Source of the DNA: an uncultured Candidatus Rokubacteria bacterium
Lineage (GTDB): Bacteria; Methylomirabilota; Methylomirabilia; Rokubacteriales; DASRDR01
Assembly: GCA_963804185.1 (NCBI GenBank)
Contig: CAWDPM010000005.1
Span: 298,769-362,768 of the forward strand
Reading direction: 5' to 3'
Length of the DNA stretch: 64,000 nt
The notes beneath the pieces were generated by a model. That model ran no database searches, was not told the origin of the DNA, and saw only the letters and a program-made list of their open reading frames with translations. Of the stretch, positions 1 through 19,227 are shown one piece after another. Within the stretch, counting starts at the first letter, position 1. The number at the start of each line of letters is the position of its first letter. A program made the position numbers and the translations under genes.

Positions 1-1471
1 CGGAGAGCCCCTTCACCTGCAGGGCGACCGGGGGTCCGACCCTCGCGAGTCCCCCGAGCTCGGCCAGGGTTCGTGCGGTCAGAAGGATTTGGCCGCCGAC
101 CGTCGCGCTCTCGACCCGGCTCGCCACGTTGACCGCGCTGCCCACCACAGCGTACTTGGCCCGCTGCTCGGAGCCGATGTTCCCCACCACCGCCTCACCC
201 GTGTGGAGCCCGATGCCCATCTCGAACGCGGGCAGTCCACGCCGGGCGTGCTCTGCGTTGATATCGATCAGGGCCGCTTGCATCGCCAGCGCGGTGGCGG
301 CCGCCCGCTCCGCGTGGTCCAGATGAGCCACCGGCGCGCCGTAGACCGCGAAGATCGCGTCGCCGATGAACTCGTTGATCGTCCCCCCGTGGGCGATGAC
401 GACTTCAGCCATCCGCGCAAGGTAGCCGTTGAGGATCTCCATCACCTCCTCCGGGTCGCCCTGCTCCGCGAATCGCGTGTAGCCCCGGAGGTCGGACATG
501 AGCACCGTCACGACCCGCTTCGCGCCGCCGAAGCGGAGGCCCTCCGGCGACTCCAGGATCGCCTGGGCCACCTCCGGCGATACGTACCGCCCGAATGCGG
601 AACGGATGAAGTCGCGCTGGCGGAGACCGTCGAGCATCGCGTTGAATGCCTGGGTGAGCCGACCCACCTCGTCCCGCGAGGTCACCGGAAGGGGCCGGGA
701 GAGGTCGCCGGCCGCGACGCGCGACACGCCTCCCGTGAGAAGCGCAATGGGCCGGGTGAGGCGACGGAGGGCCAGGAGCCCGAGCACGAGCGTGGCGAAC
801 GAGCCGACCGCCGTCGCGAACAGCAGGGTGTTCCGCAGCTCGTGGAGCCGGTCGAGGTAGATCTCGACCGGGTAGGCCACGTGGAGGAGGGCGCCGGGGC
901 GTCCATCGGGGTCGAGGATCGGTGCGAAGGCCGAGATCCAGAGCCCGCCCTGATGCCGATACACGCGCGTGTAGCGGGCCACGCCGTCGCCGAGCGTCCA
1001 GCCCATCGGCTCGATCAGCTCCGGAGCCAGGGGGTACGAGTCGCCAGGACGCCCCGGTCCGCTACTGGCGATGACCAGGCGGGCTGTCCGCGCGTCCGGC
1101 AGGACGGCGGCGAGCGTGGTGATCGGGCTCGTCAGAAGGGTCTCGTTCTGGATCGCGGCGAGGGCTTGACGGAGTTTCTGGTACCCTGCGGAGTCCGTGG
1201 ACCGGGTGGCGTCGACCTCCATGAGGAGGCGTGGGTCGAGCTGGAGTGCCGCCACCCGGGCGATGTTGAGCAGCTGCGTGCCGACCGAGTCCTCGACCTC
1301 GCCCCGCTGCCGCGTGTAGGTCAGAAAGCCCACGGCACCCACGGCCAGGAACGTCACGGCCGCGAAGAACACGGCCAGCCGGACGCTCAGCCGTTGCCAT
1401 GGCCGGAGCGGAGGTGCGGCCGCCGACTCGGGTCTCGCGGACGAGCCATTGCCATGCCCCGGGTGGGCCAT
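1..1471 (-). CDS. Class III adenylate/guanylate cyclase with N-terminal periplasmic sensor region, TM segments and HAMP-like linker; C-terminus runs off window start (partial)
   Basis: Minus-strand translation from ATG at 1471 (MAHPGHGNG...), TM helices, HAMP-like AFNAMLDGLRQRD, cyclase motifs VTVLMSDLRGYTRFAE, FIGDAIFAVYGAP, GLHTGEAVVGNIGS. The 606-aa plus-strand ORF 89..1909 is its antisense shadow. Confidence 0.85.
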   Translation of the reverse strand, partial: MAHPGHGNGSSARPESAAAPPLRPWQRLSVRLAVFFAAVTFLAVGAVGFLTYTRQRGEVEDSVGTQLLNIARVAALQLDPRLLMEVDATRSTDSAGYQKLRQALAAIQNETLLTSPITTLAAVLPDARTARLVIASSGPGRPGDSYPLAPELIEPMGWTLGDGVARYTRVYRHQGGLWISAFAPILDPDGRPGALLHVAYPVEIYLDRLHELRNTLLFATAVGSFATLVLGLLALRRLTRPIALLTGGVSRVAAGDLSRPLPVTSRDEVGRLTQAFNAMLDGLRQRDFIRSAFGRYVSPEVAQAILESPEGLRFGGAKRVVTVLMSDLRGYTRFAEQGDPEEVMEILNGYLARMAEVVIAHGGTINEFIGDAIFAVYGAPVAHLDHAERAAATALAMQAALIDINAEHARRGLPAFEMGIGLHTGEAVVGNIGSEQRAKYAVVGSAVNVASRVESATVGGQILLTARTLAELGGLARVGPPVALQVKGLS

Positions 1472-1621
1472 CGACTCCCTAGAATGCGCCGCACCGACGA
1501 TTCGGTCCACTGGCCACGCACCCCTTGGCGGGCCCTGGACTCCGACTCCGAGCATCCCGGCCCTCCGATGAGGTATCCTGTGAGGGATGGAGATCATGGG
1601 CCTGTCTCGAGGAGACAAGCG

Positions 1622-2119
1622 ATGAGGGTCAGACTACGCTTCGCGCCAGTGTTCCTGCTGCTCGTGGCCGCCGCGGTCCTGCCCGAGGCGTCGCGCGAGG
1701 TGAGCGCGCAGCAGCCGACGTTCGACGTCATCAAGGTGGCGCAGCTGGACTACCTGCTCCGGAAGGGCACCAAGATCCAGCTAGTGGACGTCCGGAGCCG
1801 CCAGGAGTACCTGACCCGGCACATCAAGAACGCCGTGTCGATCCCCCTCGACACGATCGAGTCTCGAGCCGGAGAGATCCCTCGGCAGGGACTGGTCGTC
1901 CTCTACTGAGCGTGTCCACATCACCTGGCCAGTTTGGCCTACGGCAAGCTCTACGCGATGGGTTACCGGAACCTGAAGGTGCTGGACGAGGGCATACCCG
2001 GCTGGGTGCAGCAGGGCTTGCCGACTGAGGGCTGGCAGTCACGCGGACCGTTCGTGCCGCACGGTGACGAGACTTACCGCGCGGTGGGAGTGGCCCCTCC
2101 CGCACGCCAGACGCAATGA
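1622..2119 (+). CDS. Secreted single-domain rhodanese-like sulfurtransferase with in-frame TGA (1907-1909) at the catalytic Cys position; candidate selenoprotein or nonsense pseudogene
   Basis: Signal peptide MRVRLRFAPVFLLLVAAAVLPEA. Rhodanese core IQLVDVRSRQEYLTRHIKNAVSIPLD...GLVVLY-[TGA]-ACPHHLASLAYGKLYAMGYRNLKVLDEGIPGWVQQGLP continues in the same frame. The terminal TGA overlaps the ATG of the next gene (ATGA). GC3 stays high after the TGA. Confidence 0.55.
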
Positions 2120-2592
2120 GCGCCAATCCCGCTGCGTCCCCAGCCGTCGAGGACCCTCGCGACGCCATCCCTCGGCTGCTGGCGCGCCGGGGATACCGCA
2201 TCACCGCGCCGCGCCGGGCCGTGCTCGGTGCCCTCGCGGCGAGCCAGGAGCCGCGCACCGTGGCGCAGCTACACCACGCCCTCGGCGGAGAACGCGCGAA
2301 CCTCGTGTCCGTCTATCGCACGGTGAAACTCCTCTGTGACGTGGGCCTCGTCCGGGCGACCGATGCCACCCAGGGGCAGCGCCGCTACGAGCTCGCCGAG
2401 CCGTTCATGGCGCACCACCATCACCTGATCTGCCGGCTCTGCGGTCAGATCGAGGACCTTGACGGTTGCCTCCTCGAGGCTGACGTGCTGACCCGGCTCG
2501 GGCGCCGCGTGCGGCAATCTCACCGGTTCCGCGTCACCGATCACGAGCTGCGCTTCTTCGGCGTCTGCCGCCGCTGCGACGACGGCGCCTGA
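2116..2592 (+). CDS. Fur-family metal-dependent transcriptional regulator
   Basis: N-terminal winged-helix region (R-T-R-V-L, VSVYRTVKLLCDVGLV) and C-terminal metal-binding HHHHLICRLCG...C..C motifs typical of Fur/Zur/PerR. Confidence 0.88.
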   Translation: MSANPAASPAVEDPRDAIPRLLARRGYRITAPRRAVLGALAASQEPRTVAQLHHALGGERANLVSVYRTVKLLCDVGLVRATDATQGQRRYELAEPFMAHHHHLICRLCGQIEDLDGCLLEADVLTRLGRRVRQSHRFRVTDHELRFFGVCRRCDDGA

Positions 2593-2599
2593 CCGGCGG

Positions 2600-2665
2600 G
2601 CACCAAGGCCCCGGCGGCCCGGTCCGGTGCTGGGGCCGGAGCCGAGGCCGGACCAGGGGGCCGGG
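2600..2665. terminator. GC-rich imperfect long hairpin between convergent genes; candidate bidirectional terminator
   Basis: ggcccggtccgg...ccggaccagggggccgggcc inverted repeat between the Fur stop (2592) and the OMP stop (2675). No clear U-tract. Confidence 0.3.
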
Positions 2666-2674
2666 CCGCGGGTC

Positions 2675-3472
2675 TCAGAACGACAGCGTCAGACTCGCGT
2701 AGGGCCCGTACAGGTCGACGTTCGCCTCGTCCCTGTCCCTTTCCCCTTCGGCGTGGAAGTAGCGGTAGCCGACTCGGATGGCCAGGAGCGGGATCGGCAA
2801 CCACTCGACCCCGCCTTCCGCATCGATGAAGGTTCCTCCGTCACCGATGGTACCCCCGCTGATGCGGCCGGACAGCGCGAGGGACGAGAGCAGCGGGACC
2901 GGAAACGGATGCAGGATCACGACCAGCCCCAGGGCCGGCAGGGCAGTCTCGAATTCTCCCTTGGCCTCTCCGACGAGCGGGGCCTCGATCGACGCTTCCG
3001 CACCGACGAAGCGCACGCCGATGTTGAGACCGAGGGCCGCCTGCCCCGTGTGGACCACGTCGAAGCCGTAGTCCAGGCCGGCGAAGGCGACATCGGCCTC
3101 GGACGTGACGGGGGTCGCGACGGGATACGTGCGGCCGTCGAAGGTGAACGTGCGATCCGTCTGGCGGCCTCCATCCACGCCGAAGGCGAACCCGTCGATC
3201 CGGAGCGCGTGGCGCTTGGCCAGGCGGAACGTGACGCCCCCCTGGAACACGACGTCCGGGTCGTCGATGCCGACATCGTCGTCGCTGAGCAGGTCCCCCC
3301 CGAGCCCAGCCCGTGATGATCGAACCTCGGCGTCGAGGGTCGGGAACCATGCCCCCCCTTCTACATGGATCGTGGCGTCGTGAAACGCGACGGCCGGACT
3401 TGGCGCCACCGCCAGCGTCACGACGAACGTCGCCCACAACGCGAGCGCCGTCCCGATTGACCCTCGCTTCAT
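2675..3472 (-). CDS. Outer-membrane beta-barrel protein (OmpA/OmpW-like porin family)
   Basis: Start at ATG 3472 gives signal peptide MKRGSIGTALALWATFVVTLAVAPSPAVA. Alternating amphipathic strands throughout. C-terminal LTLSF with terminal Phe, typical of OMP barrels. Confidence 0.7.
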   Translation of the reverse strand: MKRGSIGTALALWATFVVTLAVAPSPAVAFHDATIHVEGGAWFPTLDAEVRSSRAGLGGDLLSDDDVGIDDPDVVFQGGVTFRLAKRHALRIDGFAFGVDGGRQTDRTFTFDGRTYPVATPVTSEADVAFAGLDYGFDVVHTGQAALGLNIGVRFVGAEASIEAPLVGEAKGEFETALPALGLVVILHPFPVPLLSSLALSGRISGGTIGDGGTFIDAEGGVEWLPIPLLAIRVGYRYFHAEGERDRDEANVDLYGPYASLTLSF

Positions 3473-3655
3473 GCCGTGGCCTCCCAGTTCGTGGTGCACT
3501 GACCCAGTGTGCCACCAGGCCCCGCGTTTCGGCGACGAATTGGGCGATGCGTCCGGACGCCAGGACCTAAGGGCCGGTGCGATGCCGTGTCCGCTGGCCG
3601 CCGACAGCCGTCTCGTGCGACCATCTGGCTCGGTGAGATCGTAGCAGTGCATGCC

Positions 3656-4648
3656 ATGATCTTGCGTCGACAGGGGTCCATCAGCTCGCATCCGCTCGAG
3701 CGGGTGGAGCTACCGGATCCGGAGCCAGGCCGAATCGAGATTCGCGTGCGCGTCCGTGCGTGCGCGATCTGTCGAACCGACCTTCACGTCATCGAGGGCG
3801 ACCTACCCCCACGCCGCCTGCCGCTGGTGCCCGGTCACCAGGCGGTCGGCATCGTGGACCGGGTTGGCCCCGGCTGCCGCCGCTTCCATCCGGGGGATCG
3901 CGTCGGCATCGCGTGGCTCCGCGGAACGTGCGGCGCGTGCGGCTTCTGCCGGGCGGGCGCCGAGAACCTCTGCGAGGTCTCGCGATACACGGGCTACGAT
4001 GAGGACGGCGGCTACGCGGAGCTGGCCGTCGTGCCCGAGGCCTTCGCCTATCCGATCCCCGCCGGGTTCTCTGACCTCGAGGCTGCGCCGTTACTCTGCG
4101 CGGGCATCATCGGCTACCGCGCGCTCCGCCGCACGGAACTGACCCACGGCGGCCGGCTCGGACTGTACGGTTTCGGCTCCTCTGCTCACGTGGTCATCCA
4201 GATCGCCAGGCACCGTGGCACCGAGGTCTTCGTGGCGACCCGGAGCGCCCGCCACCGCGACCTCGCAAGCCGGCTCGGGGCTGCGTGGGCCGGCGATGCT
4301 ACCGAGGCGATGCCGGGCCGCCTCGACGCCGCCATAGTGTTCGCCCCGGCCGGGGAGATCGTACCGCCCGCGCTCCGAGCAGTGCGGAATGGCGGCGTCG
4401 TGGTGCTGGCCGGGATCCACATGAGCCCGCTCCCCGCGATGGAGTACGGCCCCCACCTCTTCCACGAGAAGACGCTCCGGAGCGTCGAGGCGAACACCCG
4501 GCGAGACGGCGAAGACCTCCTGCGCGAAGCGGCCGAGTTCCCCATCCGACCCTCCGTGACGGCGTTTCCGCTCGAAGCGGCCAACGAAGCACTGTGCGAG
4601 CTCAAGGGCGACCGCCTTGACGGCACTGGCGTGCTTCTGGTCACGTGA
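3656..4648 (+). CDS. Zinc-dependent alcohol dehydrogenase (MDR superfamily)
   Basis: MILRRQGSISSHPLERVELPDPEPG...CAICRTDLHVIEGDL...PGHQAVGIV, structural zinc ligands CGACGFC, Rossmann fold LYGFGSSAH. The ORF-track start at 3509 is upstream of the likely ATG at 3656. Confidence 0.85.
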   Translation: MILRRQGSISSHPLERVELPDPEPGRIEIRVRVRACAICRTDLHVIEGDLPPRRLPLVPGHQAVGIVDRVGPGCRRFHPGDRVGIAWLRGTCGACGFCRAGAENLCEVSRYTGYDEDGGYAELAVVPEAFAYPIPAGFSDLEAAPLLCAGIIGYRALRRTELTHGGRLGLYGFGSSAHVVIQIARHRGTEVFVATRSARHRDLASRLGAAWAGDATEAMPGRLDAAIVFAPAGEIVPPALRAVRNGGVVVLAGIHMSPLPAMEYGPHLFHEKTLRSVEANTRRDGEDLLREAAEFPIRPSVTAFPLEAANEALCELKGDRLDGTGVLLVT

Positions 4649-5668: not shown

Positions 5669-8600
5669 ATGGCCGACGAGCGCCGAATCGTGACGGTGCT
5701 GTTCGCGGATGTGACGGGCGCGACGGCGCTCGGCGACGCCCTTGATCCCGAGGACGTTCGCGCCCTTCTGACGCGCTACTACAACATCGCGAGAGAAGTC
5801 GTGAGCGTACACGGCGGCACCCTTGAAAAGTTCATCGGCGACGCCGTGATGGCGGTCTTCGGACTGCCCCAGGCGCACGGTGACGACGCGCAGCGCGCAA
5901 TGTCGGCGGCGATCGAGATCCGAGACAGGGTGCAGGCGGATCGGAAGCTCGGTCCGCGGCTACCCGTGCAAATCGGGGTGAACACCGGTGAAGTGGTCGC
6001 CACGCGAGACAGCGCCGCGAGCGACTTCCTGATCACTGGCGACGCCGTGAACGTCGCCGCGCGCCTGCAGCAGACTGCCGAGCCGTGGACCATCCTTTGC
6101 GGCGAGCGGACTGTCAGGGCGGCTCGAGACCGGTTCACCCTGGGCCCGCCCACCGAGATCGACGTGAAAGGGAAGCGGCTGCCCATCCAGGCGCTGCCCC
6201 TCCTCGGGCGGGCGGCCGCGGCGGAGCTGTCCAGCTTTCCGCTGATCGGCCGGGATGACGACCTCGCGCAGATCGAGCTGGTCGCCCGGCGAGCCTTCAC
6301 CGGTCGCCGCCCCTCTCTCGTCAGCCTCATCGCGCCCGCTGGCACCGGGAAGACCCGTCTGGTCGAGGAGTTTCTGCACAGGCTGGCCGTGCTCGCGCCC
6401 GATGCAACGGTGGCGATCGCCCAGTGTCTCCCCTACGGCCAGCGGGTCACTTATGGACCGCTGCGCACCCTGCTGTTGCGTCTCGTCGGTCTGACGAACG
6501 GGGTGACGCCGGAAGCCGTGCGCGAGGGGATCCGGGCATGGCTCCAGAGCCGCGGCGTGGACTCGCCCGAGCGTGCGGCAGACCTTCTCGCCGCGACGAT
6601 CGGCGCCGGTGAAGCCGAGGTCATCGACCGGGCTGCCCTCTTTGCCGCCTGGCGCACGGCCATCGAGGTGGCGGCGCGGCGGTCTCCGCTCGTTGTGGTG
6701 TTCGAGGACCTGCACTGGTCGAGCGACAGCCTCCTCGATCTCGTGGAATTCATCGTTCAGCCCCGGGGCGATGCCGCGGTGCTGATGATCGCCCTTACCC
6801 GTCCCGAGCTGCTCGATCGACGCCCGGCGTGGGGAGGAGGCCGGCGAAACTACGTCGCCATGTCTCTGGAGCCCCTCAGCGACGACTCGGTCGCGCAACT
6901 GGTCCACCACATGGTGGGGCCGGGGGCCCCCCAGATCGTCCAGCGTGTTGTGGCGCGCGCCGAAGGCAACCCCTTCTTCGCGGGCGAGATTGTCCAGGCC
7001 ATCAGGGAGCGCGTCGGCTCGCTGCGCGACGGCGATGACGTCGAACGCGCGCTCGCGACGCTTCCCGACACGATCCAGGCGACCATCCTGGCGCGGCTCG
7101 ATCTCCTTGCGCCCCCGGAGCGGCGAGTGTTGCAGCTGGGCGCCGTGTTCGGAGGTGCCTTCAGCGCGGCCGGGATCGCAGCCCTGGAGCCGGATCTGGC
7201 GGCCGACAGCGACTCGCTGGTGGATCGGCTCGTCCGGAAGGATCTCATCCGGCTCTCGACCGGGGACACCTTGGCCTTCCGCCACATGCTGATCCGGGAG
7301 GTGGCCTATCAGACGCTGCTTCGGACGGAACGGTCGCGCCTGCATGCGGCGGTTGCGCGCCGGCTCGAGACGCGTGCGGCCGGGCGTGAAGACGCGCTTG
7401 CTGAGCTGATCGCCTATCACTTTCGTGAGGCCGCCACCCTCACGAGCGTGTCCGAGACCGCGCAGCTCGACGCGGTCGAGATCCGGCGGAAAGCGGTGGG
7501 CTGGCTGAACCGCGCCGCCGATGTCGCCGCGGCCGGTGCCGCGACCGCCGAGGCCGCCCGACACCTGCGCGCGGCCATCGAGCTGGCGGCAGCCGACGAT
7601 CTCCCTGAGCTTCAGGAGCGTCTGGGTGACGTGTCAGGGGGAGACGCGGGGGCTGAGGCGTACCGGGTGGCGCTCCGCCTCTGCCGGGAGTCACGCCGTC
7701 CGGTCGACCAGGAGCTGCGCATCCTCGGCAGCCTGCTCGCCCGGTACATGCGCTTTCAGGGGACCGTCGGGAACCGGCCGACCGCGGAGGAGATCGAGCG
7801 TCTCCGCGCCGATGGCCGGGCGCTCCTCTCCCGGGCCCGTGACGAGCGGGCCATCGCGAGCTTCCTGATCGCGGACGGCTTCTATCCGTTCTGGCGAGGG
7901 GCGCAGGCAACCCCGGCGGACACTGCCGAAGCCGCTTTGAGCACTCGACGCGGCCTGGTGATCGCCGAGCGGCTTGACGATCCCCGGCTTCGGAGCGCCG
8001 CGCTCGACGCACTGACCGGCTGTGCGCAAGCGAGCGGGGCGTTTGCACAATCGCGACAGTTCGCCCAGGAGCGTCTTGCCTTCGAGGAGCGCCTCGATCT
8101 CCATGAGCGGCTCGACGCCTACACGATGGTGGCGTGGGCCTCCGCCGCGCTAGGGGACCTCGCCGAGGTGGACCGCGCGACCGCCTCGGCGCTGGGGCTG
8201 TTTCAATCCGGACAGGTCCACTGGTGGGGCCTCCACTCCGCCGCCTGGCGGGCATACGCCCTCACGCTCCTCGGGCGGTGGGACGAGGCGCTGGTCGTCG
8301 CTGAGCACGCGCGCAAGATCTGGGCAGAGGGCGGGCTCATCCCCGCCGCGTACTGCGTCCATGGCTTTATCGCCGCCCTGGATGTCGGACGGGCCCGGCA
8401 CGACGGCCAGCTCGTCGACCAGTATCGCGCAGTGCTCGACGAGATTCTGAAGCACTTCGCCGCGGACTCCCTCTTCGGGCGATTGCGACCCTACGGCCGC
8501 GGCGATCTCGAGGCCTTGGAGGCAGAGGTCGTCCACGGCTTCGCCACGATTCCGCGCGCTCGGCAGCAGCTTGTCGAGCGCACGCTGTCCTTGTGCGCTG

Positions 8601-8923
8601 ACCTGGACCGATCACTCTCCGTCGAGGCGCTCCGGCCGATCGTGGAATGTGCCGCCGCCGACGGCTTGCGGCTGCTGGAGGGCCAGGCGCGACGGGCGCT
8701 CGGCATTGCGGTGCGCGACCCTGCCGAGCTCGCGCGCGCCCTCGAGATCTTCGAGAAAGCGGGTGCGGCGCCCTATGCCGCGCGCGTCCGCTGCGAGCGG
8801 GCGCTCCTCACCAGCGATCGGAGCGAGCTCGAGGCTGGCATGCGCGTCCTCGAGTCACTGGGGGATCTCGACCAGCTCGCCCGGGTGGCGCGGGCCCGCG
8901 GCAAAGGCCTCGGCTCGCCGTGA
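5669..8923 (+). CDS. Adenylate cyclase / STAND (AAA) ATPase / TPR multidomain protein, 1084 aa, no C-terminal HTH
   Basis: N-terminal class III cyclase (VTVLFADVTGAT, FIGDAVMAVFGLP, GVNTGEVVA), P-loop APAGTGKTRL, Walker B VVVFEDLHWSS, long TPR/alpha-solenoid C-terminus. The 534-aa minus ORF inside it is antisense shadow. Confidence 0.9.
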   Translation: MADERRIVTVLFADVTGATALGDALDPEDVRALLTRYYNIAREVVSVHGGTLEKFIGDAVMAVFGLPQAHGDDAQRAMSAAIEIRDRVQADRKLGPRLPVQIGVNTGEVVATRDSAASDFLITGDAVNVAARLQQTAEPWTILCGERTVRAARDRFTLGPPTEIDVKGKRLPIQALPLLGRAAAAELSSFPLIGRDDDLAQIELVARRAFTGRRPSLVSLIAPAGTGKTRLVEEFLHRLAVLAPDATVAIAQCLPYGQRVTYGPLRTLLLRLVGLTNGVTPEAVREGIRAWLQSRGVDSPERAADLLAATIGAGEAEVIDRAALFAAWRTAIEVAARRSPLVVVFEDLHWSSDSLLDLVEFIVQPRGDAAVLMIALTRPELLDRRPAWGGGRRNYVAMSLEPLSDDSVAQLVHHMVGPGAPQIVQRVVARAEGNPFFAGEIVQAIRERVGSLRDGDDVERALATLPDTIQATILARLDLLAPPERRVLQLGAVFGGAFSAAGIAALEPDLAADSDSLVDRLVRKDLIRLSTGDTLAFRHMLIREVAYQTLLRTERSRLHAAVARRLETRAAGREDALAELIAYHFREAATLTSVSETAQLDAVEIRRKAVGWLNRAADVAAAGAATAEAARHLRAAIELAAADDLPELQERLGDVSGGDAGAEAYRVALRLCRESRRPVDQELRILGSLLARYMRFQGTVGNRPTAEEIERLRADGRALLSRARDERAIASFLIADGFYPFWRGAQATPADTAEAALSTRRGLVIAERLDDPRLRSAALDALTGCAQASGAFAQSRQFAQERLAFEERLDLHERLDAYTMVAWASAALGDLAEVDRATASALGLFQSGQVHWWGLHSAAWRAYALTLLGRWDEALVVAEHARKIWAEGGLIPAAYCVHGFIAALDVGRARHDGQLVDQYRAVLDEILKHFAADSLFGRLRPYGRGDLEALEAEVVHGFATIPRARQQLVERTLSLCADLDRSLSVEALRPIVECAAADGLRLLEGQARRALGIAVRDPAELARALEIFEKAGAAPYAARVRCERALLTSDRSELEAGMRVLESLGDLDQLARVARARGKGLGSP

Positions 8924-9803: not shown

Positions 9804-9893
9804 ATGGTGCCGGGGGAGGGAGTCGAACCCTCACACGTCTTGCGACGTAGCGAATTTTAAGTCCGCCGCGTCTCCCAGTTTCGCCACCCCGGC
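9804..9893 (-). tRNA. tRNA-Leu (anticodon TAA) with long variable arm
   Basis: Reverse complement GCCGGGGTGGCGAAACTGGGAGACGCGGCGGACTTAAAATTCGCTACGTCGCAAGACGTGTGAGGGTTCGACTCCCTCCCCCGGCACCA: 7-bp acceptor stem, anticodon loop CTTAAAA, T-loop GGTTCGACT, CCA end. Confidence 0.88.
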
Positions 9894-10143: not shown

Positions 10144-11385
10144 ATGCTCGGAGGTCACTTGGTATCCGACCGGCTACTGCTCGGCTCGCCTCTGCGCCGG
10201 CCGCGAGTAGCCGGATGGGTCGTCACCGGGCTGCTCGCGGCCATCGTCGTCTCGGTCCTGACGCTGTTCCTCGCCGTCCAGTCGCTCAAGCTCGGAGCGG
10301 CGGGGGTGTTCGTGAGAGGTCTGGGCCTCGCCGCGCTGGCCTCGCTCGTGCCCGTGGCCGTGCTCTGGTTCCTCGACCGGCGCGAGCGGGAGTCGCCTCC
10401 GCTCTTTGCGGTGGCCATCCTGTGGGGCGCGCTCATCGGGACTGGCCTGGCCCTGCCGCTGAACACAACCATCCTAGGGGCTGTCAAGCGCTGGCTGTCG
10501 GAACACCCGATTCTCGACGCGTACCTGGGACCACAGGCGACGCTTCTCATCGGGGCGCCGCTGGCCGGTCCGCTCGTGGAGGAGATCACCAAGGGTCTGG
10601 GAGTGCTGGCGCTGTTCTGGCTGCTGCGGGCCGAGTTCGACAACATGCGCGACGGCCTCGTCTACGGCGCGTTGGTGGGGGTGGGCTTCAACCTGGTCGA
10701 GGCGCCCTTGTATGTGGCCCAGGGCTACTCCCAGTACGGCGTGGCGCCGTGGGGCCTCCAGTTCGGGGCCCGCTTCGCCCTGTTTGGGCTCGGGGGTCAC
10801 GCGCTGTTCACGGGGATCTTCGGGGCGTTTCTGGGGGTGGCGCGGCAGACCGCGCGTGGATGGCTGCGCATCACGGCCCCCTTCCTCGGGCTCCTGCTCG
10901 CGATCGTGGCGCACGCGCTGAACAACGTACTCCCCCTCCTCATCACCATCCTCCTTCGCTCTGCCGGAGAGAAGCTGCCGGAGCCCGGACCGCCCCCGTC
11001 AGTCGGGTTCATCCACGCTTGGCTGCTCGCCAGCGCTCAGAACGTGATCGTGTTCTTCCCCTTCGTTGTGCTGATGCTTGGGCTCCTGTGGCGCAGCGGC
11101 CGCTGGGAGCGACGCGTGATCCGGGAGGAGCTGGCCGACGAGGTCAGCGGCCCTGTCACACGTCCCGAGTACGAGCAGATCATGCGCGACGGGGTGTTCC
11201 GGACGCGGCGCATCGTCCGCTCGGACCGGCGCCGCTCGGCGGCGCTGGTCAACGCGCAGCACGAGCTGGCCTTCCGCAAGCGACGGGTGCGCGCGGACGG
11301 CCGCGATCCCGAGCGAGACCCGCTGGTGGCCGGATGGCGACGCGAGATCGCAGACCTCCGGAGCGCGCCACCGACGGCCGTTTAG
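10144..11385 (+). CDS. PrsW-family intramembrane metalloprotease
   Basis: Multiple TM helices with conserved motifs EEITKG, FGLGGHALFTG, HALNN (EExxK / FxxxH / HxxxN of the PrsW/CPBP family). The 621-aa ORF 10026..11891 is an out-of-frame overlap. Confidence 0.82.
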   Translation: MLGGHLVSDRLLLGSPLRRPRVAGWVVTGLLAAIVVSVLTLFLAVQSLKLGAAGVFVRGLGLAALASLVPVAVLWFLDRRERESPPLFAVAILWGALIGTGLALPLNTTILGAVKRWLSEHPILDAYLGPQATLLIGAPLAGPLVEEITKGLGVLALFWLLRAEFDNMRDGLVYGALVGVGFNLVEAPLYVAQGYSQYGVAPWGLQFGARFALFGLGGHALFTGIFGAFLGVARQTARGWLRITAPFLGLLLAIVAHALNNVLPLLITILLRSAGEKLPEPGPPPSVGFIHAWLLASAQNVIVFFPFVVLMLGLLWRSGRWERRVIREELADEVSGPVTRPEYEQIMRDGVFRTRRIVRSDRRRSAALVNAQHELAFRKRRVRADGRDPERDPLVAGWRREIADLRSAPPTAV

Positions 11386-11515
11386 CGGTTGTGCGCGCCC
11401 CGAAACACGTGGTGCCCCCCGGCGCACGTCCGGGATCGATGCGTCAGTCTGCGGGCGTGACGACCAGTGCACGTCTCGGACGGGCGAGACGGCCAAGGTC
11501 AGGACGAGGGAGGTT

Positions 11516-11591
11516 GGAGGCGGCGGGCGGATTCGAACCGCCGAGTAACGGTTTTGCAGACCGTCGCCTTAACCACTTGGCTACGCCGCCT
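11516..11591 (-). tRNA. tRNA-Cys (anticodon GCA)
   Basis: Reverse complement GGCGGCGTAGCCAAGTGGTTAAGGCGACGGTCTGCAAAACCGTTACTCGGCGGTTCGAATCCGCCCGCCGCCTCCA, 76 nt, anticodon loop CTGCAAA, T-loop GGTTCGAAT. Confidence 0.92.
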
Positions 11592-11619
11592 TTTCAACTA
11601 CTTACAGCGATTTGGCAGG

Positions 11620-11655
11620 GGAATTATACCCTATCGGACCATTCACGGTCCGATG
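11620..11655 (-). promoter_or_regulatory. Candidate -10 box (TATAAT) about 33 nt upstream of tRNA-Cys, flanked by perfect inverted repeat ggacc-attcac-ggtcc
   Basis: Minus-strand reading ...ggaccgtgaatggtccgatagggTATAATtcccctgcc. The inverted repeat could be an operator, or a terminator for the upstream small ORFs. Confidence 0.3.
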
Positions 11656-11780
11656 AACCGGGAAACTCTCCACGACTGCTGCCGGCGCCGAGGTCTCGGC
11701 GGCTGGCTCCGGCACCCCGAATCGCACCCGACTCCACCGCCCCCGAAGATGGGCGGGCGAAAGATGGGCGTACCGGGCGG

Positions 11781-11837
11781 TCATCCGGAGATCCGAGTGG
11801 CGCCGACGAGGAGCGGGGCGAGCAGGATGCGCTTCAT
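11781..11837 (-). CDS. 18-codon ORF (MKRILLAPLLVGATRISG) whose ATG overlaps the stop of the upstream Cys-rich ORF
   Basis: ATGA overlap with the gene above. The SD-like AGGAGACTCCACC lies inside the upstream ORF end. Hydrophobic, signal-peptide-like. Could be a leader peptide or the decapitated N-terminus of a lost gene. Confidence 0.2.
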   Translation of the reverse strand: MKRILLAPLLVGATRISG

Positions 11838-12127
11838 GGTGGAGTCTCCTGTTCGTGCACTGGCAGTGGTCGGCCGCACGCGCACTGGTAGAGGCTGAGC
11901 GGCCGGTACGTGCAGCGGTGGCAGAGCATGCCATCGCCGAGGCGTCCACAGCACGCGCACGGGCGCGGCGGATCGTTCGGACCGATCCACGTGACGTGGT
12001 CGATGCCCTCGCAGCCGACGGACCGATGCCAGTCGGCCCAGATCATGACCGCGTCCAGGGTCGCGCCGGTCCTGGCGCGTCCGCAGAAACAGACGGCGAG
12101 GAATGGGGGCCTAGTGTTTCGGGACAT
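11834..12127 (-). CDS. Small cysteine-rich hypothetical protein (98 aa, about 10 Cys: CxC, CxCC, CxxC, CxC)
   Basis: ATG at 12127 with AAAGG 8 nt upstream. GC3 about 85 percent, consistent with coding. Cysteine pattern suggests a zinc-binding module. No known family recognised. Confidence 0.45.
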   Translation of the reverse strand: MSRNTRPPFLAVCFCGRARTGATLDAVMIWADWHRSVGCEGIDHVTWIGPNDPPRPCACCGRLGDGMLCHRCTYRPLSLYQCACGRPLPVHEQETPP

Positions 12128-19152: not shown

Positions 19153-19227
19153 TGGAGCGGGAAACGGGATTTGAACCCGCGACCCCAACCTTGGCAAGGT
19201 TGTGCTCTACCCCTGAGCTATTCCCGC
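19153..19227 (-). tRNA. tRNA-Gly (anticodon GCC)
   Basis: Reverse complement GCGGGAATAGCTCAGGGGTAGAGCACAACCTTGCCAAGGTTGGGGTCGCGGGTTCAAATCCCGTTTCCCGCTCCA, 75 nt. Confidence 0.92.

Follow-up and report, generated by a model that had tools for sequence, protein, structure and literature searches.

We analyzed a 64-kb stretch of DNA (68.6% GC; hereafter the window, whose numbering is used for all positions except those given within a named locus) from an uncultured Candidatus Rokubacteria bacterium, and in particular a gene at 1622..2119 on the forward strand that encodes a rhodanese interrupted by an in-frame TGA. The original prediction, made from the letters of the sequence, held that this TGA is decoded as selenocysteine (Sec), and the unbroken frame on which it was built was recovered upon translation. 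The product reads MRVRLRFAPVFLLLVAAAVLPEASREVSAQQ...GLVVLY-*-ACPHHLASLAYGKLYAMGYRNLKVLDEGIPGWVQQGLPTEGW...ARQTQ*, its sole internal stop is the TGA at 1907..1909 (...GLVVLY-*-ACPHHLASLAYGKLYAMGYRNLKVLDEGIPGWVQQGLP...), and the peptide across the Sec site would be GLVVLY-U-ACPHHLASLAYGK. The open reading frame (ORF) was thus taken as a complete predicted selenoprotein gene of 165 codons, including one Sec-UGA, with a single rhodanese domain. The UGA specifies residue 96, which in the active-site loop of rhodaneses is the catalytic Cys, and the codon at 1913..1915 (+) specifies an invariant Cys98, the second half of a U-x-C dyad in the motif Y-U-A-C-P-H.

A Shine-Dalgarno-like AGGAG, assigned by reading the sequence, lies 7 nt 5′ of the ATG (1610..1614, +), and a probable signal peptide of the Sec export type (MRVRLRFAPVFLLLVAAAVLPEASREVSA|QQ; 1622..1708, +) is suggested by a basic start, a hydrophobic core and VSA ahead of QQ, so that the product is probably exported. 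The terminal TGA at 2117..2119 overlaps the ATG (2116..2118) of a gene for a Fur-family metalloregulator of 158 amino acids (2116..2592, +). Both the ATGA overlap (2116..2119) and the family assignment had been proposed before, and the product matched Pfam FUR with E = 1.6e-19 (70.7 bits versus a cutoff of 23.1), while its top NCBIfam matches were Fur/PerR models, with every score under cutoff and no equivalog reached. The two genes form a probable operon. The GC content at third codon positions was 0.91 5′ of the TGA, 0.77 3′ of it and 0.86 in fur, in agreement with the predicted high value downstream of the TGA. A promoter and terminator scan of 1300..2800 returned nothing useful.

With C written for the stop, the Pfam Rhodanese model (PF00581) spanned the TGA (residues 48-130, E = 1.2e-15, 58.2 bits versus a cutoff of 22.2). 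In an alignment to solved rhodaneses, the TGA fell on the catalytic Cys of YgaP, in keeping with the nucleophile position given in the original prediction, and the predicted spacing to the downstream GY motif, to within one residue, was also found, the stretch from the stop to GY(R/K)N showing one gap against 6mxv, a single residue long. In an alignment of the homologues, Y95, A97, C98, P99 and H100 are invariant and residue 101 varies between H, E and R. The six-residue active-site loop reads U-A-C-P-H-H, opened by Sec96, and is followed by the helix LASLAYGKL. This loop contains no basic residue, the Arg or Thr usual in thiosulfate sulfurtransferases being absent, and it carries an extra thiol at +2.

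Structural features were taken from an AlphaFold2 model of P0001, a Cys-containing orthologue. The core of this model (approximately residues 40-140) has a predicted local distance difference test score of about 90, and comprises a strand (93-97), then C98, then a helix (103-114); at the N terminus, residues 8-19 form a lone helix that leads into a disordered linker. The top Foldseek matches were all single rhodanese domains, namely 6mxv, BH2092 (3nhv), Alr3790 (3ilm), YgaP and the periplasmic Sud. As judged from the model, the protein has the rhodanese fold, with the nucleophile opening the loop that comes after the central strand. The label 'sulfurtransferase' in the original prediction is a putative activity read from this fold.

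To what extent the TGA is conserved was assessed at the protein and at the DNA level. A protein search yielded 257 relatives, and the 120 best clusters were examined at the Sec position. In 108 of these clusters the protein ends precisely at ...LY, immediately ahead of the TGA; 11 clusters continue as ...Y-C-A-C-P-H..., and one carries Trp. Cys occupies the Sec column in P0001-P0006, P0013, P0014 and P0024, and the full-length Cys-type orthologues P0001-P0006 are 166-168 amino acids long. A scan of one genome per species yielded 353 related stretches, from which 80 loci were kept, and the motif was found in 79 sequences (the window and 78 of the 80 kept loci). The codon at the Sec position is TGA in 74 of the 79, TGC in three (L009, L011 and L074) and AGA in one (L017); A97, C98, P99 and H100 are unchanged in all 79. 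With TGA present in 74 independent assemblies, it is very likely the true base call in the window. Protein identity to the window is no more than about 40-85% among the loci, whose record titles mention Methylomirabilota/Rokubacteria, Binatia, 'delta proteobacterium'/Thermodesulfobacteriota, Syntrophobacter, Nitrospinota and Acidiferrales, as well as metagenome-assembled genomes (MAGs) of Udaeobacter, Chloroflexota and Gammaproteobacteria. These MAG labels are perhaps imperfect, and most of the loci belong to two blocks.

The frame beyond the TGA is conserved as well. A-C-P-H-x-L-A-S-L-A-Y follows in frame in all loci, and a comparison of the 69 codons 3′ of the TGA gave 15 synonymous and 3 non-synonymous codon changes between the window and L001, and 29 and 6, respectively, between the window and L010, with no in-frame stops. 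The large excess of synonymous changes and the lack of stops indicated that the downstream part is translated and under purifying selection. Two comparative signs of a Sec codon were therefore found: the in-frame UGA aligns with Cys in homologues, giving a Sec/Cys pair, and both the UGA and the frame behind it are conserved among orthologues. The alignment with Cys- and Sec-containing homologues, which had been put forward as a check, thus gave Cys at the TGA column (P0001-P0006 and others) and a conserved downstream frame.

A small hairpin, ggcca-gtt-tggcc at 1927..1939 (DNA GGCCAGUUUGGCC), begins at the 18th base after the TGA. It had been noted as lying within the range of bacterial selenocysteine insertion sequence (SECIS) elements, and it proved to be the conserved core of such an element. 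This core spans 1924..1944 (+) and consists of a stem, 1927-1931/1935-1939 (GGCCA/UGGCC), a GUU loop at 1932-1934, and two flanking pairs across an internal loop, C1924-G1944 and C1925-G1943. In the minimum free energy (MFE) fold, possible extended lower stems (GAGC/GCUC and UGUC/GGCA; 1908..1951, +) compete with the CC/GG flanking pairs.

One sign of the element came from codon usage in the 74 TGA-type genes. At most conserved residues the choice among synonymous codons is free, e.g., Ala at +1 is encoded by GCG in 27, GCT in 20, GCA in 15 and GCC in 12 genes, and all four codons are used for Gly at +18. The codons from +5 to +12, however, are nearly frozen as CAC CTG GCC AGT YTG GCC .. GGC. 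Here His is CAC in 70 of 71, the first Leu is CTG in 70 of 74, the first Ala is GCC in 74 of 74, Ser is AGT in 73 of 73, the second Leu is TTG or CTG only, the second Ala is GCC in 64, GCT in 9 and GCG in 1, and Gly is GGC in 68 of 69. Normalised codon entropy was accordingly 0.22 at the hairpin versus 0.76 at 32 other conserved codons (Mann-Whitney p = 2e-4).

RNAalifold returned exactly the 5-bp GGCCA-GUY-UGGCC hairpin, and the stem is paired in 58 of 58 distinct sequences, with changes in the 5-bp stem amounting to one double change (G-C to C-G, in L022) and 8 G-U wobbles. The pairs C1924-G1944 and C1925-G1943 each show one C-G to U-A double change. Taken jointly, the seven pairs are formed in 98.8% of cells with 3 compensatory changes, a covariation that was reached by 0 of 500 shuffles. 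The lower stems (1908-1916/1943-1951) were 89% paired, with one pair kept in just 27 of the 58 sequences, and as part of the SECIS element they are less well supported than the core. The three Cys-type orthologues have lost the hairpin (−0.2 to −3.4 versus −7.4 kcal/mol) and their synonymous sites have drifted, e.g., to CTC GCG AGC CTC GCC in L009. The 13-nt motif occurred 82 times in the window and the 80 loci, and 75 of these matches lie at the Sec site with the TGA 17 nt upstream.

We then compared the hairpin with the published constraints on bacterial SECIS elements (PMC13188914, Fig. 2), which ask for an apical loop of 3-9 nt (3, or 5, nt here), an upper stem of 4-16 bp (5, or 4, bp here), a G in the first two loop positions (A-G-U-U-U fits N1-G-[G|U]-N-N2), a UGA-SECIS distance of 16-37 nt (22 nt here) and an MFE of −7.5 kcal/mol or lower (−15.0 kcal/mol for UGA..+45). 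Hence, every constraint of the bacterial consensus (bSECISearch model; PMC13188914, Fig. 2A) agrees with the element found here, which differs from that consensus in its short upper stem (4-5 bp) and in a sequence that is almost invariant across lineages. For this very reason, the element is recognised more by its frozen synonymous sites than by covariation. Turning to the shape of the apical part, the hairpin loop presumably resembles the GCC-GGUCU-GGC loop of the Moorella SECIS bound by SelB; L064 carries exactly GGCCGGUCUGGCC.

These data indicated that the UGA at 1907..1909 is almost certainly recoded. We further consider it highly probable that Sec rather than Cys is inserted, and that the gene as a whole encodes an exported rhodanese-fold selenoprotein with a conserved SECIS element. 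Sec decoding of the TGA, the central claim of the original prediction, was supported by every comparative test run; the U-x-C dyad and the linkage to SCO1 and VKOR in other lineages, described below, are additions of the present analysis. The gene is most probably a bacterial selenoprotein gene of the known rhodanese class, in a UxC form, that works as other such genes do, and its decoding mechanism is not a new one.

Several observations weigh against this interpretation. When the hairpin region is folded on its own, its stability does not exceed that of shuffled sequences (z = 0.63; 69% GC sequence), and the case for the SECIS element consequently rests on the comparison of homologues. Most stem columns are invariant, so the covariation support comes from few events, and part of the nucleotide conservation must reflect the peptide HLASLAYG, which is kept in the Cys forms too. 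At the Sec site itself, one locus (L017) has AGA and one protein (P0010) has Trp. Finally, neither selA, selB and selD nor a tRNA-Sec gene was detected in the window or in the flanks of the homologous loci, about 1.2 Mb in total: tblastn with E. coli queries gave no SelA, SelB or SelD match in the window and all loci, and no tRNA-Sec was found in the 64-kb window (ARAGORN and Rfam) or in the 80 loci (ARAGORN). This negative is uninformative, because sel genes can sit anywhere in a genome and the search covered the window and the loci.

As to the two exceptional residues, the AGA (Arg) codon of L017 (10226..10228; Thermodesulfobacteriota MAG DASVDK010000237.1) stands next to an intact SECIS hairpin, and L015, a close relative, has TGA at the corresponding 1811..1813. 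The AGA may reflect a mistaken base call, a recent loss of function or the recoding of a sense codon. P0010, from a JGI metagenome contig of 946 nt, is a relative of the Nitrospinota-type L013 and reads LVVLYWACPHE, with Trp presumably encoded by TGG. A 95-nt 'tRNA-Arg(acg)' called by ARAGORN in L017 (6499..6593) was considered as a recoding tRNA and rejected, as Rfam found no tRNA there at its gathering threshold; GC-rich coding sequence has probably given rise to a spurious call. Five other in-frame-TGA candidates in the window, coding-like on both sides, were likewise rejected as selenoprotein genes, being ordinary gene ends or adjacent genes.

Published data on Sec use in the phylum lend indirect support to Sec decoding. 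For one Methylomirabilota MAG, 63 selenoprotein genes have been predicted (PMC13188914, citing Deng et al. 2026), and the phyla in which Sec-type group 4 hydrogenases occur include Methylomirabilota (PMC13582414). SelB can also deliver tRNA-ReC, which inserts Cys at SECIS-linked UGA codons, and tRNAs of this type were reported in 13-17% of surveyed genomes (PMC13582414).

Sec-containing rhodanese-like proteins are an established class, for which a 2026 catalogue lists five forms: UxxS, UxxG, CxU (NF041203), a second UxxG and UxxxxU/TsoB (PMC13188914). The Y-U-A-C-P-H (UxC) form appears to be unlisted, and as far as the published motif labels go it is set apart from forms 1, 2 and 4. In the literature we found neither a rhodanese selenoprotein of the UxC type nor one linked to VKOR, and the deep-Sep paper does not mention rhodaneses. 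Forms 1, 2 and 4 are reportedly due to Kryukov and Gladyshev in 2004 and Zhang et al. in 2005. They likewise place Sec at the catalytic Cys of PF00581 with a SECIS element inside the coding sequence (PMC13188914, PMC1088965), and are known here by their motif labels, UxxS and UxxG, from which the window motif U-A-C-P-H differs in being UxxP with a Cys at +2.

The closest comparison is with form 3. NF041203 (rhodanese_LYCAU) was the top NCBIfam model for the window protein, residues 29-136 of which aligned with profile positions 15-124 of 126. Like the window gene, this family of 'rhodanese-related (seleno)protein' (CxU in PMC13188914) has a single domain in which L-Y is followed by a Sec/Cys dyad with one residue in between. 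In NF041203, however, Cys is catalytic and Sec lies at +2 (LYCAU), whereas in the window gene Sec is catalytic and Cys lies at +2 (LYUAC). The L-Y-C-A-U motif was accordingly not found, and L-Y-U-A-C stands in its place in the window and in all 74 TGA loci. The window protein scored 50.2 bits against the NF041203 cutoff of 115, and therefore falls outside the family; Cys-type orthologues scored 43-50 bits. Three distant relatives, P0232, P0244 and P0260, end two residues later, in ...YCT or ...YCS, and match NF041203 up to profile position 84. Apparently these are selenoproteins of the CxU type that have been cut short, and they mirror the UxC form.

A selenoprotein from Olavius symbionts, described as a UxU rhodanese-related sulfurtransferase, illustrates that Sec can occupy each of the two positions of the x-A-x dyad in this group of rhodaneses (PMC1976440); it has two Sec residues, versus one Sec and one Cys in the window protein. 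With GlpE, PspE, YgaP and Wolinella Sud, the window protein has in common the fold, the nucleophile position and the six-residue loop, and differs from them in a Sec nucleophile and in a loop with an extra Cys and a His and no basic residue. PspE and Sud are periplasmic, and the window protein is probably so too. Membership of GlpE or PspE was ruled out by NCBIfam scores far under cutoff (NF001195 and NF007627; 24.0 and 22.6 bits versus 102). In the NCBI entry for one member, the protein is a 95-amino-acid 'rhodanese-like domain-containing protein', from which it appears that the family is not recognised as a selenoprotein there.

The gene occurs in two kinds of surroundings. In the window, it lies between a divergent gene for a HAMP and class III cyclase protein upstream (2..~1420, −) and fur downstream, and 10 Methylomirabilota/Rokubacteria loci, both Cys-type ones among them, also have the rhodanese-fur pair, in most cases with this overlap. 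In the other block, SCO1/SenC (52 loci) and a VKOR-family gene (55 loci) precede the rhodanese gene on the same strand, and queC follows it (52 loci). SCO1 is a copper chaperone and thiol-disulfide protein, and VKOR is a quinone-linked enzyme that generates disulfides; the VKOR-family neighbour also bears a WCPHC thioredoxin-like motif. In view of these family functions, the linkage to SCO1 and VKOR points to extracytoplasmic thiol/selenol redox chemistry or to copper handling. The full order, SCO1/SenC - VKOR - rhodanese(Sec) - QueC - DUF58 - BatA/VWA on one strand, was observed at 8337..13686 of L060 and in 52-55 other loci, e.g., L016, L018-L025, L027-L029, L031-L033 and L035-L076. In L060, QueC and DUF58 lie within a single ORF of 532 amino acids (10340..11938).

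Some further features of the window surround the rhodanese-fur pair. The HAMP and cyclase gene (2..1420, −), which codes for a membrane sensor, runs off the left end of the window, and a second, putative class III nucleotide cyclase gene near the locus is represented by an ORF of 1084 amino acids with a cyclase-like start (5669..8923, +). Convergent with fur is an ORF of 338 amino acids (2675..3691, −) that has no Pfam match, ends in ...YASLTLSF, as is typical of outer-membrane beta-barrels, and is syntenic in six Methylomirabilota loci. Downstream of the locus lie tRNA-Leu(taa) (9805..9893), tRNA-Cys(gca) (11515..11590) and tRNA-Gly(gcc) (19153..19227, −). The same Leu-Cys-Gly trio follows rhodanese-fur in L007, L008 and L010, while L009 and L011 have Leu and Cys and L005 has Leu only; the recurrence of this tRNA set after the pair indicated extended synteny within the phylum.

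Based on these results, we propose the following working scheme. The UGA at 1907..1909 would be read as Sec by SelB with Sec-tRNA(Sec), recruited by the GGCCA-GUU-UGGCC hairpin 22 nt downstream, inside the codons for L-A-S-L-A. Translation would then run on to the stop at 2117..2119 and couple into the overlapping fur-family gene. In the product, Sec96, at the rhodanese nucleophile position, and the invariant Cys98 would form a U-x-C dyad, in which Sec96 may accept sulfane sulfur, another chalcogen or an electrophile, and Cys98 may resolve the Sec96 adduct via a selenenylsulfide. A redox dyad of this kind is favoured because the loop is devoid of the typical basic residue and holds a second thiol at +2. 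The protein would accordingly be a periplasmic redox or sulfur-transfer enzyme and not a plain thiosulfate sulfurtransferase of the GlpE type. The chemistry of the dyad and a partnership with SCO1/VKOR or with Fur are hypotheses. The most specific version, to which we give tentative credence at best, is that this is a sixth, uncatalogued UxC form whose Sec-x-Cys selenenylsulfide cycle works in an extracytoplasmic SCO1/SenC-VKOR relay and has been rewired to Fur in Methylomirabilota.

A different function was also considered, in which the recoding is real and the protein serves mainly to bind or handle a metal, e.g., copper, via Sec96, Cys98 and His100. This would suit the invariant U-x-C-P-H, the probable co-transcription with a Fur-family metalloregulator gene in Methylomirabilota, the location immediately behind the genes for the copper chaperone SCO1/SenC and for VKOR in 52-55 loci, and the loop without the Arg or Thr usual in thiosulfate sulfurtransferases. 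However, the fold and the six-residue loop length are those of catalytic rhodaneses, and the SCO1/VKOR synteny suits a thiol/selenol redox relay equally well. We regard a mainly metal-binding role as rather unlikely.

The identity of the inserted residue was the next point to be weighed. If a selC-like tRNA-ReC were brought by SelB to the same SECIS element, UGA would be recoded to Cys and the product would be an ordinary C-x-C rhodanese. The route has been described, in the 13-17% of surveyed genomes referred to above (PMC13582414), and the conserved UGA, the SECIS element and the Cys orthologues fit Cys insertion equally well. Yet tRNA-ReC is a minority system that still needs SelB and SECIS and was reported alongside canonical tRNA-Sec, and none was found in the window or the 80 loci. 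Moreover, a costly UGA and SECIS have been maintained over the long term across lineages although TGC works, as it does in three loci, which argues that the inserted residue differs from Cys. Insertion of Cys at this UGA thus appears improbable, and Sec insertion remains the preferred reading.

The nonsense-mutation alternative raised with the original prediction can be given practically no credence. A single substitution would turn TGC (or TGT) into TGA, leaving a dead fragment of 95 residues, and a 95-amino-acid product is indeed what gene callers and NCBI annotate. A recent mutation of this kind is nevertheless ruled out by the TGA found in 74 of the 79 sequences, at 40-85% protein identity, and by the 69 downstream codons, which are under purifying selection and free of stops; conservation of the RNA hairpin is specific to the TGA forms, and the ATGA coupling to fur is retained. 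Nor are the TGA loci copies of one contaminant, since they differ from one another in flanks and synonymous sites.

A lineage-wide change in the meaning of UGA to Trp or Gly, or leaky read-through independent of SECIS, could appeal to the Trp (presumably TGG) of P0010 and is hardly credible. TGA is the stop of 22 of the 30 coding-like long ORFs in the window, including the rhodanese gene and fur, which excludes a genome-wide reassignment. The loci belong to several high-GC lineages that are unrelated and use standard codes, the enzyme would be inactivated by Trp or Gly in place of the catalytic Cys, and the conserved hairpin would be left unexplained.

The reading of this gene as a Sec-decoded rhodanese has consequences for annotation and for the family. 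Gene callers routinely split the gene, leaving a fragment of 95 residues that does not contain the active site, and its recognition corrects the annotation of a gene that is common in abundant uncultured lineages of soil and groundwater (Methylomirabilota/Rokubacteria, Binatia and relatives). It adds a UxC form to the rhodanese selenoproteins, and the near-invariant SECIS sequence GGCCAGUYUGGCC could seed searches for further members. A UxC-SCO1-VKOR relay, if true, may serve in the maturation of copper enzymes or in periplasmic sulfur or selenium handling, for example, and the gene order SCO1/SenC-VKOR-rhodanese(Sec) points to a putative connection of selenium with thiol or copper biochemistry in the periplasm.

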